Below, one piece after another: positions 1,944-22,014 of a stretch of DNA of 64,000 nucleotides (its first letter is position 1; each line of letters begins with the position of its first letter). A program made the translations under genes and the position numbers. Origin of the DNA: Tubiluchus corallicola (Eukaryota; Animalia; Priapulida); assembly GCA_030141605.1 (NCBI GenBank), contig JAQGDQ010000283.1, forward strand, positions 1 to 64,000, given 5' to 3'. The notes under the pieces were generated by a model, which made no database searches, was not told where the DNA came from, and was given only the letters and a program-made list of their open reading frames with translations.

Positions 1944-2558
1944 CAGGTAACGTCTGTTCAGGTACAGGCAATAGTTGACTATTCAATTAGATTAAGTAAT
2001 TTATACGTGAGAGTGAGAATGAAAATAAATGAAACTGGCGCTCTATCGAATGGAAACAAGTTACATATTTTAAGCTCGACCAGAGCAACAAGCTCCAACC
2101 ACAGAGAAACAGAACAAAGGTTTTTGTCTGCACCACGAGAGGACGCTAGCATACCTGTTGCTGTTACCTGAGAAGCTATCGCGTGATGATGACGTCGTTG
2201 CCAGGTAACGCAGTGTTTGTATCCGTGTGTACAGGTGATGCAGGTGACTGGTATTGTCATTAGCGCTTTGAGTACGTTTCCATGCATCTTCTCGTTGAGT
2301 GCATAGATAATAAGTAGCATCGTTCTCTAGATGCTACTCGGGCTTCAATGGTAGATATTTAATAAGATTTATTCAATTTATCAATAATTTAAGTTTCGCA
2401 AGCAAAAGAGCTAACAATTCCGGACAGGTGTGCCGTTACAGTTTGAGCAGGTATTATTGATCTCAGTGACTATGCATGTGTTGCGAGTACACAGGTGCTA
2501 TTAGACATGGCATGTCGTGAAAGAGAGGAGGAGACGACACAAACCGCTAACGCAGGTG
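1944..2558. promoter_or_regulatory. Cluster of 11 CAGGTA/CAGGTG (E2-box, ZEB/Snail-type) motifs around the start of gene A
   Basis: Sites at 1944, 1959, 2152(rc), 2165(rc), 2202, 2232, 2241, 2424, 2448, 2492 and 2553. The regulatory role is inferred. Confidence 0.5.
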
Positions 2559-2605
2559 GTGAAGGGAAAAATTCAACCACAGAAAGCAACTTGAGAGAAA
2601 AACGA
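2507..2605 (+). CDS. Gene A coding exon 1 (MACREREEETTQTANAGGEGKNSTTESNLREKR) of a TEAD-binding-motif/AT-hook protein
   Basis: ATG at 2507 in a GACATGG context, 33 open codons, then a consensus donor CGA|GTAAGT in phase 0 that matches the phase-0 acceptor at 5288. Confidence 0.7.
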
Positions 2606-4422
2606 GTAAGTAGATCCTTCGCTTTTTCTACTATAAAGGTCTTACACCCTGAAACCAGTATGAAATGCAACTAATTATTAATTGGACTCGCAAAGGGTTA
2701 AAAGAACTGTTGGTGACAAGTGTTGCCCAGTAACGGATTTTCCTATAAATCAGGCAAATGAAGAATACCAGTAGGGAATTTGAAATGTCCCCATATAATA
2801 AAAGGTTATTGAAAATTTTGTGCGATTTTGTAGCAATATTATTGTTTTTGTTGTTAAGGGAAAGGACAAGTCATTTAGGGCTCATTATACTGTTACAAAA
2901 AATATAAACTTAGAAAAATATAACAAAGAAATTTGCAAAAAACTGTGTATAAAGCATCAATTTAATTTATACTACTGCTACACAGAAATTTCCAGGCACG
3001 GTGGTAGCCGCTATTTACTTGAAAATTGCAACGTAACTGGTGGACTTAGCGACTTTTCGTAAGCGCATCGTGACTTTTCGTGCTGCTTTAACTAATTCAA
3101 ATTTCAGCGGCTTACCTAATGTTCATGCGAAAATATCACAAAATTAGCTATGTAATCTTTTGAAAAAACTTGCTGTACTTTTCACATAAATTAGCAGTAC
3201 ACTGCTTTTCTTCAGCTAACGAACGACGTCATTGGTGGAAGAATGGGCGCTCAAAATAGGAGCGCCCAAGTGTAAAACGGTTTTAAAAACATTTTACCAA
3301 TTACAAGAGGTACTTATCACACTTTTGTTGCTAAATCTTTCAAACAATTTTCACGAACATTGAAATTAGCCTAATACCCCAGCAGACTTGGTTTTTCCTT
3401 TAAGAATTTGAGTTTTAAGATTTTAGCAAAATGTCATTCATTTATTTATATGTCAAAAGGGGTAATTTTGGACAATAATGAAAGCACGTTTAATACTGGC
3501 AAAATTAATAACATATACGTACATTATCCTTTCTACTGTGGGTAGCATTCTAGGAGACTGAGTGCTAAACTTTAAAAACAATTGATCTAGGATCATCCAA
3601 AATTATGGTCTTCCACTAAAAATTAAACAACGTTACCTTACACGCTACGTAAGTTTGGCTACCCAATTCCTAACGGTGTTTCACGCTTCGCAGCTATCTC
3701 TCATTCCACAAGCAGCATACTCGGATCACTGTTATTCTTTATACAAACTAAAGTCACCGCTAAAGTTTTTACATCTTCCTGTAAATATCAGGTGTGCTTT
3801 GCGCACGAATTGCGAAGTAAGATCATAGACTTCAAGAGTAATTAGTGAATAGCACGCATTCTGATCTCAATAAAAATTACGGGAAATTCTGAAAACGTTT
3901 TAAGAAGATTTTAAAACGGCCAAAGGTAATTTTATTTTGATGACTTTGTTAACATGAAGCATGATGGTGATGTCAATGTTTCCTATAGACAGTTTTATTT
4001 TATTTCATTTCACTACCAAGTAGAATAAGTTTTAGTTCGACTTTATTAACAGTTATAATGTCGTATTTTTTCTCATTTACGTTTTTTTGAGAAAATAAAT
4101 GAAAACTAATTCAGATGCTGTTTATTTGTACCCTAATTTGTTCATGTCACCTGGTCATATAGGTAAAAGATAAAACTAATGAGCGCAACAGCTGCTGCAT
4201 GTGGTTCATTGCATAGTCACTGGTTCCTTTGTTCTCAGTCATTGGTGAGACAGCAAGCGTAACAAATTATCAAGCAACAGAATCTGATAAACTGTATGAA
4301 TGAATTTGATATGCACGCACGAAAGAACAGATCAATGCGCTTGCGATAACAATTAAAATGCTTGGTTTTATCCAATTAATGCGCCATTGTCAGTGCATGT
4401 CGAGAGGAATAAAGAAAAAAAC

Positions 4423-4524
4423 AGAGAGAGGGAGAGAGAGAGAGAGAGAGAGAGAGAGAGAGAGAGAGAGAGAGAGAGAGAGAGAGAGAGAGAGAGAGAG
4501 AGAGAGAGAGAGACAGAGGGAGAG
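4423..4524. repeat. (GA)n microsatellite
   Basis: Seen directly in the sequence. Confidence 0.97.
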
Positions 4525-5287
4525 AAGTTAACTGTTAAGATACCTCTGCTTCTTTAAATCTTAAAGAATTCTTTCAAATATTCCTGAACTGTAGCTTTAA
4601 AAGTTAGAATCACAAAACACTAAAATGTTTCTTCCAGTGTTTAAAGTAATTAAATATCAATGACAATGACATATACGCATACGACATCGATTTGTTTGAA
4701 ACTAAAGCGTGGAAAAGCAAAAATTGTGCTAATAATATACATGTCCAAGGCTCAGCACACAGCCACATTACTATGCGCAGCACACATTAAAGTGCATAGT
4801 TGCAGCAGCTGTATTAATCCAGTCAATCAAGTCATAACAAGCACATTTTAATTTAATCACTGAAACTGCTTGATTCAGTAATTATTTAATGTTTCAGAAG
4901 AAGTGTAGCGATTTGTTATTGTCTCACCTTCCTATTAAGTCATTATGCAATGTGTAAATTAATCCTGTTTCCCAATGCACATTAAACGTAAATGCAAGTA
5001 AGAAGAGAGAGAAAATACCCAGAACAATGGTTTCTCTTAAAAAACTATGTAACTTTGAACTTTTATTTACACTTAAAGTTTTTTAACTACTTTCGAAGAA
5101 ATTCATCTACTTCTTAGTAGAACGTAAATATTGAACAAATTATTTTTACTTGCTGCCAAAATTTTCCTCAGGAAATTTTCTTCCAAGTTTCAATGTTGCG
5201 TTCTTATACATCCGAAAGGAACACAGTTTAAAAGCAATTGTAGTCATCTTGAAAAAAGAAGTTACAGTGTGCATATTTCATTTACAG

Positions 5288-6065
5288 ACTGCTAGTGCGG
5301 AGAAGAGGCGTTCCACAGGCCCCCTGCCATCTAGCAGTGATGAAGATGACGAAGGTTTTCATGAATTCAGTGTCTGTTCACCTGCCTATGAGAGTGTGAG
5401 CTCTCCATGTGATTCAACCTCCAGCGGACCAGTATACTCCAGAAAACCTGGATTCGAACTTCACGGTCATACTGTCACGGTCTCGAAATCGAAGAAGAAA
5501 AAGAGCGAGAAGGTCAACAATGCCGGTAGAATATCGTCAGCATCATCAACCGGTTCTAGTGTCGGTTTCAGTCCCCTACCACTGGATTCGGTCAACAAGA
5601 CAGAACAAGTGATTGCTGCAGACGCTCCAACGTTTCCCAAAGACAGAGGGAAACCAGAAACAGAGGCTGAGTTAGAGGCTGAGTTGAGTTTGACCGCATC
5701 TGCATTAACACTTCACAGAAAAATTCATAAGAAACCAATCAACTCCTTGTGCCGCCGTCACTCGGATGGTTTCAACGATGACTTTCTTCAAAGTCACGTG
5801 AATCGTAGACTTTTATCATTACCCAGCGATAAACTGGCTTCATCACCTTTAAGCACAGATTCTGGTGATTATTTAGAGACATCCTCAATCGCCAGCAGTG
5901 ACGGTAGTGACTTGTTGGCTTCTCCTGTATCCACATCCAGAACTATTGAGTCGCTGTGTGTTACCTCACACATCACAAAACACAAGAAGCTGCACCGGGC
6001 TTTTGAAGCAAAAGAAGTTTTTAAAAAGAATGGACCAACGCCTCCTAAAGTAAGACCAAAAAAAG
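5288..6065 (+). CDS. Gene A coding exon 2: Ser/acidic-rich low-complexity region with basic NLS-like patches (KSKKKK, PKVRPKK)
   Basis: Lies within ORF 5150..6070. Acceptor ttcatttacag|ACT at 5288; composition is coding-like and GC-richer than the flanks; donor AAAAG|GTTAGT at 6065/6066 is phase 1. Confidence 0.85.
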
Positions 6066-20827: not shown

Positions 20828-21178
20828 TTCAGGTGCATGACGATTATGATGTATAATAATAATAATTTTGATAACTACTTTCATTACTGCAATCGCAGTG
20901 ATGACAACATTAATTAGGACAAGCACAAAAATACAATATGTTGAGATGTTTAATAATGAAAAAATATTAGAAGAAAAGGAACAAAAATAATCTGAATGAT
21001 ATTCTTCGTGAAAGTAACAGAAGTCTGCAAGCATCATCATTGCCATAGTCGTTGTTACCTCGCTGCTTTTCCACTAATGTTGTAGAAGTTATGAGAGTTG
21101 GGGCAACGGGATTCACTGTTTGATTTCAAGTAACAAGTTGCTTTTGAATATTAAAAATTTTAATTTTTGAATTTTCAG

Positions 21179-21353
21179 AAGTTCGTCCAGTCACTCCTCC
21201 CGATGAACGAGAAGCACAGGAAAAGGGCATCAAACTCAGCAAACGTCTAGAGCGCAAGGTGATATCCACAACTCCAAACACAGATCTGCTTTTCAGTTTA
21301 TTTGATGCTATAGAAGGCAAAGACAAGAAATTGTCTCAAGTTAAAAGAGGAAG
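21179..21353 (+). CDS. Gene A coding exon 4 (EVRPVTPPDEREAQEKG...NTDLLFSLFDAIEGKDKKLSQVKRGR)
   Basis: Acceptor attttcag|AA, donor GGAAG|GTAAAC, 175 nt open, phase 1 to phase 2, compatible with both neighbouring exons. Confidence 0.85.
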
Positions 21354-21495
21354 GTAAACATGACTCTAACATTTTGCATTTGTTAGATTTGCTCTCCAAT
21401 CTTATCTATGCACAGTAAAACTTGTTTGCATTTGCTTCATAAAGCAACTGCTCAAGTTAATTAAATTCAGCACTTGCATTTAGCCACTTCAAGGT

Positions 21496-21680
21496 CTCTC
21501 TCCCTCTCTTTCTCCCTCTCTCTCTCTCTCTCCTTCTCTCTCTCTCTCCCTCTCTCTCTCTCTTTCTCACTCTCTGTCTCTCTTGCTTTCTTGTCTTATC
21601 TCCTTCTCCTTCTTTCCTCTCCTCTTATTTCCTCCTCTCCTGTCTTCTTCTCAGCCTCTTCTCCTCTATTCTCTTCTTCT
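21496..21680. repeat. CT-rich degenerate microsatellite in intron 4 of gene A
   Basis: Seen directly in the sequence. Confidence 0.9.
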
Positions 21681-21779
21681 CGGTCTGTTATTGCTCGTCT
21701 CTATATTTTACATTTGTCTTTTAGCATACGCAGATACCATTGCCACTGTGACCATTCGCACTGAAAATTTTATTTCCAG

Positions 21780-22014
21780 ACCCAAAAAGATTTCTCCTCC
21801 GTCAAGCATGCCCTCATTGAGATCAGATGATCCTCTAATATTCGATGCAATACAGAAGTTTCCTCAGCTCAGCGTAGAAAAGGCGGCAACTGCAGGAAAC
21901 CAAACACTGGCAGTAGTTTCCATTCAAGAAGGTGAAAGGTCTGTTACTTTACCTCAACTCAAGCAGGAAAGTAACCTTTCAGATACATTGGCAGAACTAG
22001 TGGCGAAGTTGTGA
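21780..22014 (+). CDS. Gene A terminal coding exon (completes AT-hook KRGRPKK; ends ...LSDTLAELVAKL*)
   Basis: Acceptor ttatttccag|A is phase 2. It is the 3' part of ORF 21583..22014 with stop TGA at 22012-22014. The spliced CDS totals 1422 nt = 473 aa plus stop. Confidence 0.85.

Follow-up and report, generated by a model that had tools for sequence, protein, structure and literature searches.

Gene structure

The window, the whole 64,000-nucleotide stretch of Tubiluchus corallicola DNA analysed here, contains a gene of five exons on the plus strand at positions 2507..22014. All four introns begin with GT and end with AG, in phases 0, 1, 1 and 2, and splicing yields a protein of 473 amino acids followed by TGA. 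Exon 1 (2507..2605) comprises 33 codons from an ATG to a phase-0 donor, GTAAGT. Exon 2 (5288..6065) includes a KR and acidic serine patch (5300-5356), a conserved SSGPxYxRxPGF motif (5393-5473) present in 46 of 56 full-length relatives, a lysine run (5486-5503) and a long low-complexity insert. Exon 3 (20575..20709) holds an omega-loop of the TEAD-binding type (20580-20627, residues 295-310) and an SPxxxYPVLPPL motif (20649-20684), an LPPL-type version of which occurs in 75 of 80 relatives. Exon 4 (21179..21353) encodes an RPVTPPDE sequence (21184-21207), a short strand-like stretch (21247-21273) and a predicted LxxLF helix (21274-21312, with LFSLF at residues 375-379), and it ends with the first half of an RGRP motif. 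Intron 4 splits the AT-hook-like basic motif to which RGRP belongs (21337..21789, residues 391-399). Exon 5 (21780..22014) runs to the stop codon through a DP motif with a short helix (21826-21876) and, as predicted by AlphaFold2, a beta-hairpin (21898-21969) and an amphipathic C-terminal helix (21976-22011).

To evaluate the gene model, we used a family profile (A1) built from 17 relatives only, with the window protein left out. The spliced protein matched it at E 8e-85. When the window was scanned in all six frames (2863 frames), good scores came from just the four that hold exons 2-5. These exons abut without gaps on the profile, at positions 3-95, 96-139, 140-195 and 195-277. Together with the GT-AG introns, this tiling bears out exons 2-5 of the five phase-compatible exons that the earlier note spliced into 473 residues. 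The position of intron 4 is common to relatives: of 182 database proteins, 18 stop at the GR that follows the helix, and intron-like residues precede R-P, R-S or R-H at the start of 13 of 21 last-exon frames. Exon-2-only frames make up 15 of the 182. A 202-nt contig of run X24, whose RNA nature is a guess, differs from exon 2 at 16 sites; nine of the 11 differences listed fall at third positions and seven are synonymous (p 0.0014). Judged from these substitutions, the exon 2 frame is under selection.

No homologue covers exon 1 in the family-profile scan. An upstream exon is nevertheless needed, because the next methionine after residue 1 falls inside the omega-loop. Exon 1 ranks first by codon usage among six ATG-to-donor candidates (11.6 versus at most 3.5, in a scan whose donor matrix is an approximation). 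Among 2841 overlapping windows free of stops, taken from intronic or intergenic DNA, 13 reach that score. Its GC content of 0.46 is similar to that of the other exons, and its single variant in run X23 is synonymous; this run behaves as DNA. Neither the four runs on exons 3-5 nor the four on exons 1-2 contained a splice joint, and the 24 runs listed had their matches nearly all through small repeat-derived shares. The gene is real, with exon 1 as the best candidate for its first exon.

Eleven CAGGT[A/G] sites cluster at 1944..2558, just upstream of and inside exon 1, with no strand assigned. In 2000 shuffles such sites averaged 0.5 and never numbered more than 4, and the best other 701-nt window holds six, for a pattern that was chosen after the sequence had been seen. 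The cluster is a possible regulatory region.

Omega-loop and LxxLF helix

The 16-residue loop encoded by exon 3 matches the Pfam TEADIR3 model (PF15238) with 32.4 bits against a cut-off of 26. The same model, formerly named FAM181, matched 69 of 79 relatives at E up to 1, in a set that includes 10 loop-less last-exon fragments. The window loop carries residues matching YAP P85, M86, R89, L91, P92, S94, F95 and F/W96, positions at which TEAD-binding residues of YAP have been named and of which W96 has been noted in FAM181A (PMC7784741). Across 62 named loops of the family, the equivalents of P85, M86, R89, P92, S94, F95 and P99 are invariant, position 91 is L or F, position 87 is K or R, and position 96 is W in 61. 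The family profile also retrieved the YAP and FAM181A peptides of TEAD complexes (E 0.02-0.05), and a loop-region search for FAM181 sequences returned only a thrips member of the family. The YAP/FAM181-type loop that had been proposed for exon 3 is thus upheld by the Pfam score and by hot-spot conservation in 62 orthologues.

The DLLFSLF segment of exon 4 had been described as a generic cofactor-docking helix, a reading we replace. By its sequence it is an LxxLF motif, the type with which YAP occupies TEAD interface 2, and it lies downstream of the loop, in reverse of the order in YAP, Vg, FAM181B and PERCC1. Of 80 non-redundant relatives, 77 have LxxLF after the loop, at a distance of 34-206 residues (median 65); none of 56 has it before the loop, where a looser pattern occurs in one. 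In an alignment of 57 rows, the three LxxLF residues are invariant, D or E stands two places before the motif in 55, and V or I occupies the position of YAP V72 in 53; the YAP helix likewise begins with acidic residues (PMC7784741). Since LxxLF arises in 10.7% of 20,000 shuffles of the protein, the case for the helix is its conservation and not its rarity. Bivalves have an extra or altered residue within it.

Exon 4 by itself had no match among PDB chains up to E 10, and family profiles matched YAP at the loop only, with no match at the helix. When exon 4 residues 16-52 were modelled in complex with a TEAD YAP-binding domain, with alignments unused and the controls not folded, the score was 0.00 twice, which counts neither for nor against binding. 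In the model of one relative (pTM 0.23) most of the chain lacks structure; short helices form at the motifs, and local confidence peaks at the predicted LxxLF helix. At this low overall confidence, the model has no helix before the loop and no packing between helix and hairpin. The AlphaFold2 model of the C-terminal hairpin and helix reached a pLDDT of about 75-89 (pTM 0.31), and neither Foldseek (E up to 0.001) nor VIA-align (Z 2) found a match for it. Matches in the ESM Atlas to NEXMIF/DUF4683 and MeCP2 fragments were set aside (best 0.81, under the lead mark of 0.9).

The RGRP motif

RGRP (residues 394-397) is formed across the 21353/21780 splice, as had been foreseen for the exon 4/5 junction. 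Residues 391-399 fit the description of an AT-hook as a GRP core flanked by K/R (PMC11354804); the proline that precedes the core in HMGA-type hooks is absent. The motif arises in 0.5% of 20,000 shuffles and lies 12-29 residues past the helix in most members. Among 63 named species 44 keep it and 19 lack it; among 80 non-redundant relatives the figures are 48 and 32. It occurs from corals to tunicates and has been lost in heterobranch snails and rotifers. Members lacking RGRP have 4-11 K/R within 35 residues past the helix. Pfam AT_hook matched none of 79 relatives at E up to 1, in a search whose filters drop weak matches of short models. Co-conservation of loop, RGRP and C-terminal helix, a point raised in the earlier note, holds across phyla, and RGRP within it is not universal. 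Given its loss in some lineages, DNA contact through the AT-hook-like motif is plausible but non-essential, and the basic stretch kept where RGRP is lost makes a role as import signal a live rival.

An invertebrate family

Relatives occur in cnidarians, spiralians, arthropods, echinoderms, amphioxus and tunicates; the named family-profile matches listed (best 120 of 301) include no vertebrate, fly or nematode. The literature search found no description of the family, which ranges from corals to sea squirts, and the earlier note is supported in so far as it suggested something uncharacterised in invertebrates. In the tree, the window protein belongs to no supported group, with Lineus, Saccoglossus, Magallana and Lingula nearest and equidistant.

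The protein had also been said to have no WW domains, and this extends to the family. WW, PPxY and HxRxxS patterns, the last being the LATS site motif, are all absent from the window protein; among 80 relatives the counts were 0, 4 and 2, respectively, and Pfam WW was found in none of 79. Pfam Vg_Tdu was likewise found in none of the 79, and an upstream xxHF-type pattern in one of 56. A PxTPPxE/D sequence is present in only 35 of 80 relatives.

Proposed mode of action

We propose that this unnamed and, as predicted, mostly disordered invertebrate family probably acts as a TEAD/Scalloped cofactor, with an omega-loop followed about 65 residues later by LxxLF. From sequence evidence, we give this reading a probability of roughly 0.55. 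The loop would, with good reason, be expected to occupy TEAD interface 3, the site that it takes in YAP and FAM181A. The chain could then return over TEAD through the 34-206-residue linker, so that the strand and LxxLF fill interfaces 1 and 2; binding would then be tighter, and YAP/Yorkie and Vestigial would be kept off TEAD. Competition with Yorkie/YAP, as the earlier note envisaged, would follow if TEAD is bound by the loop. In VGLL2, affinity was lowered by a long linker (PMC7566471), and the family helix may for that reason add little. RGRP could be an accessory AT-hook, present as a single copy, that contacts AT-rich DNA close to TEAD sites and is dispensable in some lineages. More speculatively, the C-terminal hairpin-helix and the N-terminal GPxY motif might recruit further partners. 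With neither a WW domain nor a conserved LATS site, such a cofactor would bypass the Hippo kinases and would instead be controlled by its expression and by the proline-directed PxTPP site.

A serious competitor, though one we hold less probable, is that TEAD is bound through the omega-loop only, while the LxxLF helix docks elsewhere or on the protein's own hairpin-helix and RGRP is mainly an import signal. FAM181A indeed uses interface 3 only (PMC10146773), and at sites that are acidic in YAP the family helix carries additional conserved hydrophobic residues. The helix, basic stretch and DP motif are closely spaced, whereas the gap between loop and helix varies sixfold; retention of K/R after the helix in RGRP-less members points the same way. 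Yet a reordered TEAD-binding domain would be expected to show just this pattern, an invariant, acidic-start LxxLF beside a TEAD loop and none ahead of it, and the single-chain model of the relative (pTM 0.23) argues against docking on the hairpin. An import signal, moreover, has no need of an invariant G-R-P, which is nonetheless kept from corals to tunicates, and exon 2 has a separate lysine run.

It is improbable that the family is a divergent invertebrate FAM181 or PERCC1 orthologue already included in published alignments. The common Pfam model and the tryptophan at position 96 would fit such an origin, and the invertebrate PERCC1/FAM181 species listed in PMC9710580 overlap those of the family (for example Lingula, Lottia, Strongylocentrotus and Branchiostoma). 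In that paper, however, PERCC1 and FAM181B are characterised by an interface 2 motif ahead of that of interface 3 and by an N-terminal helix. The family has no upstream LxxLF (none of 56), and the low-confidence model of one relative shows no N-terminal helix; no vertebrate FAM181 or PERCC1 appears among the named profile matches (best 120 of 301). Very improbable indeed is a YAP-like loop whose partner is not TEAD, or a model that joins unrelated exons. The loop is short and the runs examined contained no RNA junctions, but every known hot-spot position is conserved across the 62 named species, and exons 2-5 tile the profile with intron positions common to relatives.

Beyond TEAD binding, one may ask whether this is an ancient fifth family of TEAD cofactors with permuted interfaces and its own AT-hook, one that the common ancestor of cnidarians and bilaterians already had and that vertebrates, flies and worms have since lost. 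We consider this broader claim tentative and on balance doubtful. If true, it would add an overlooked branch to Hippo pathway output: a TEAD output independent of Hippo kinases in most invertebrates, displacing Yorkie and Vestigial and steering TEAD to AT-flanked sites. In the published descriptions consulted, the TEAD surface cofactors (YAP/TAZ, VGLL, FAM181 and PERCC1) either have the helix ahead of the loop or rely on a single site, and DNA contact is described for none of them. A reversed order, if true, would mean that TEAD binding sites are modular and reorderable, which bears on cofactor evolution and on the design of peptide inhibitors. As the family is seemingly absent from standard models, studies of invertebrate Hippo signalling may miss a TEAD partner; corals, molluscs, annelids, crustaceans, sea urchins and amphioxus are the groups concerned.

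Comparison with known systems

FAM181A and FAM181B (PDB 6L9F, 6SEN) resemble the family in their omega-loop, the tryptophan at YAP position 96, the lack of WW domains and PF15238. FAM181A differs in having the loop only, and FAM181B in that LxxLF precedes the loop, according to PMC9710580; neither is described with RGRP or a hairpin-helix end, and the FAM181 N-terminal helix is not evident in the family. PERCC1 is likewise WW-less and of low complexity, with interface 2 and 3 motifs, a conserved C-terminal region and members in marine invertebrates. Its interface 2 motif precedes that of interface 3 within residues 173-222, the reverse of the family order, and it has vertebrate members, unlike the family as judged from the named matches listed (best 120 of 301).

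The GRP core with K/R flanks recalls HMGA-type AT-hook proteins, from which the family differs in that the motif occurs only once, lacks the proline ahead of RGRP, matches Pfam AT_hook in none of 79 relatives and has been lost in some lineages. With YAP, TAZ and Yorkie it shares the interface-3 hot spots and an acidic-start LxxLF preceded by a strand-like stretch, a likeness of helices that rests on the motif, the sequence match being at the loop only. The family differs from them in placing the loop before the helix, in having no WW domain or conserved LATS site, and in its AT-hook-like motif, YAP and TAZ being without DNA-binding domains (PMC9710580). Finally, Vestigial and VGLL2 also have no WW domain and join a strand, a helix and an omega-loop by a variable linker, but with a VxxHF helix ahead of the loop (PMC7566471, PMC10146773).

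Gene model and exon structure

The earlier note had joined exons 1 (2507..2605), 2 (5288..6065), 3 (20575..20709), 4 (21179..21353) and 5 (21780..22014), all on the forward strand, into one gene, and these coordinates held: all introns run GT...AG, and the spliced frame comprises 473 codons and a stop. The spliced protein scored E 8e-85 against a profile of 17 relatives from which the window's sequence had been left out. In a six-frame scan with the family profile, good scores were confined to the frames of exons 2-5, which adjoin on the profile at positions 95/96, 139/140 and 195. 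Among 182 database proteins, fragments predicted from unspliced DNA of other animals end or start at the same exon borders: 15/182 comprise exon 2 only, 18/182 stop at the GR that follows the helix, and of 21 last-exon frames 13 start with intron-like residues directly before R-P, R-S or R-H. Since the relatives' unspliced fragments break at the same places, the intron splitting RGRP is common to them, and the proposed exon 4/5 junction motif is thus no artefact. Exon 2 differs from a 92% identical contig at 16 positions, with a third-position bias in 9 of the 11 listed; after the lysine run and ahead of the loop it carries an insert of about 150 residues (5560-5950) that most relatives lack. 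Exon 1, for which no homologue was found, is a candidate, the best of six possible start exons. Four sequencing runs over exons 1-2 and four over exons 3-5 yielded no splice junction.

Intron 1 holds a high-copy interspersed repeat (2877-3330; depth about 1000-1700 versus about 20-50 alongside in DNA run X23). A 103-codon frame without Pfam match (13301-13612, minus strand) lies within the 14.5-kb intron 2 and is possibly part of a nested gene. Eleven CAGGT[A/G] sites on both strands occupy 1944-2558, against 0.5 expected for a pattern chosen after seeing the sequence, in a stretch of ~600 bases that leads up to and takes in the start codon of exon 1. They fit binding sites of the Snail, ZEB/Zfh or Zelda type, and some may instead serve untranslated exons as donors.

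An invertebrate family with a probable TEAD-binding loop

The proposed YAP/FAM181-type omega-loop was borne out: the exon 3 loop passes PF15238 (TEADIR3), and YAP and FAM181A peptides were the top matches of the family profile in PDB (E 0.02-0.05). The key YAP loop residues named in the available part of PMC7784741 are P85, M86, R89, L91, P92, S94, F95 and F96. Of 63 hand-labelled species, 62 show the loop, the sequence of the other being N-terminally cut. Across the 62, positions 85, 86, 89, 92, 94, 95 and 99 (YAP numbering) never vary, position 91 holds L or F, and 61 have W at 96; the locating pattern itself required R89, P92 and S94 and allowed only two or three residues at 86, 91, 95 and 96. 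Together, these matches and the conservation strongly suggest that the loop binds TEAD, with a probability of roughly 0.85. Pfam already marks it in most members, so the loop is known at the database level.

Exon 3 by itself matched 57 of 63 candidate proteins; the family profile recovered 390 representatives with E no higher than 0.001, and a deeper profile 301 clusters. Named members include corals, one jellyfish, one rotifer, molluscs, annelids, nemerteans, one brachiopod and bryozoans; among arthropods, chelicerates, a sea spider, a millipede, crustaceans, hemimetabolous insects, thrips and beetles; and echinoderms, one hemichordate, amphioxus and one tunicate. Almost every one is annotated as uncharacterised or hypothetical, while a few bear automatic look-alike names. 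No vertebrate, dipteran or nematode is named among the matches listed (150 of 390; best 120 of 301); because the named matches come from part of the whole and many are nameless, loss from these groups is likely rather than certain. The Tubiluchus corallicola protein takes no placed position in the family tree.

Two distinct copies occur in the barnacles Pollicipes and Amphibalanus (P0078, P0086, P0249, P0256) and in Tachypleus (P0047, P0234); one Pollicipes copy keeps RGRP and the other has lost it. Firefly beetles carry a shortened, divergent form without the C-terminal hairpin; in members of the rotifer type, RGRP is missing along with the hairpin.

Protein layout and the RGRP motif

Eighty relatives were retained from 212 stored proteins by C-terminal coverage (109), presence of the loop (108) and <90% identity; as the loop was a selection criterion, its count there is no evidence, whereas conservation of its residues does count. 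From the N-terminus, the order is a basic-acidic start, SGPxYxRxPGF (46/56 relatives), a lysine run, the omega-loop, an LPPL-type motif (75/80), TPP or SPP (48/80), a strand-like stretch followed by LxxLF, RGRP, a DP motif (76/80) and a C-terminal end with predicted hairpin and helix. PxTPPxE/D, found in 35/80, is presumably a proline-directed kinase and Fbw7-type site. An AlphaFold2 model of one relative is mostly unstructured (pTM 0.23).

The available part of PMC11354804 describes the AT-hook as a GRP core with basic flanks, which the window's RGRP matches. This core is kept in 44/63 named species from corals to tunicates, but the AT-hook proposed earlier is not universal: all seven heterobranch snails lack RGRP, as do the rotifer, both bryozoans, both amphipods and several others, and these retain a basic stretch. 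The loop, RGRP (48/80) and the C-terminal end (71/80) are co-conserved across phyla. Pfam AT_hook matches 0/79 relatives at E up to 1, under filters that drop weak matches of short models. Because G-R-P is conserved exactly, a role beyond that of a nuclear import signal is favoured; that RGRP binds DNA, though not in all members, is possible at slightly under even odds.

Other features of the window

Two single-frame paralogues on the minus strand (29964-30839 and 42086-42745; E 3e-13) have 3-4 hydrophobic segments, and the latter weakly matches a CD20-like Pfam model (E 0.033). A 291-codon frame (49785-50660, plus strand), which begins Ser/Pro-rich and has three or more hydrophobic segments, shows no clear link to them. 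A large exon (61602-62936, minus strand) encodes a partial pentraxin domain (E 3.8e-07) and, after it, a Thr-rich stretch in which runs of Tyr recur.

A putative TEAD cofactor in reverse order

LxxLF lies downstream of the loop, 34-206 residues away, in 77/80 relatives, and upstream in 0/56 full-length ones. An alignment of 57 rows, made up of exon 4 from the window, 55 of the 80 relatives and one further sequence, and excluding three relatives without LxxLF and most with long inserts, has its L, L and F invariant, an acid before it in 55 and V/I at the YAP-72 position in 53. Such a helix might dock in TEAD interface 2; however, LxxLF is frequent by chance, sequence searches tie the family to YAP at the loop only, and the family helix carries two additional hydrophobic positions, so that we hold docking there to be an evenly balanced proposition.

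On the most likely reading, the protein is a TEAD cofactor of the nucleus that has no WW domain and would cover the YAP-binding surface in reverse order, shut out YAP/Yorkie and Vestigial, use one accessory AT-hook and, with the LATS-type pattern HxRxxS in 2/80 relatives, be free of direct LATS control. A literature search including six member gene identifiers and the Pfam names, and covering few subscription papers, turned up no account of this family, nor of interfaces in reversed order or an AT-hook in any TEAD cofactor; published PERCC1 alignments, which are images, may contain members. New here are the separate family, the motif order and the AT-hook-like element.

According to the available part of PMC12672301, FAM181A/B bind TEAD4, their transcriptional effect not being resolved; in that of a Hydra study (PMC8526868), FAM181 refers to YAP's own domain. 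In YAP, TAZ, VGLL2, Vg, FAM181B and PERCC1, as far as the available parts of PMC9710580, PMC7566471 and PMC10146773 describe them, the interface-2 helix precedes the loop, whereas in the unnamed family the loop comes first and LxxLF second.
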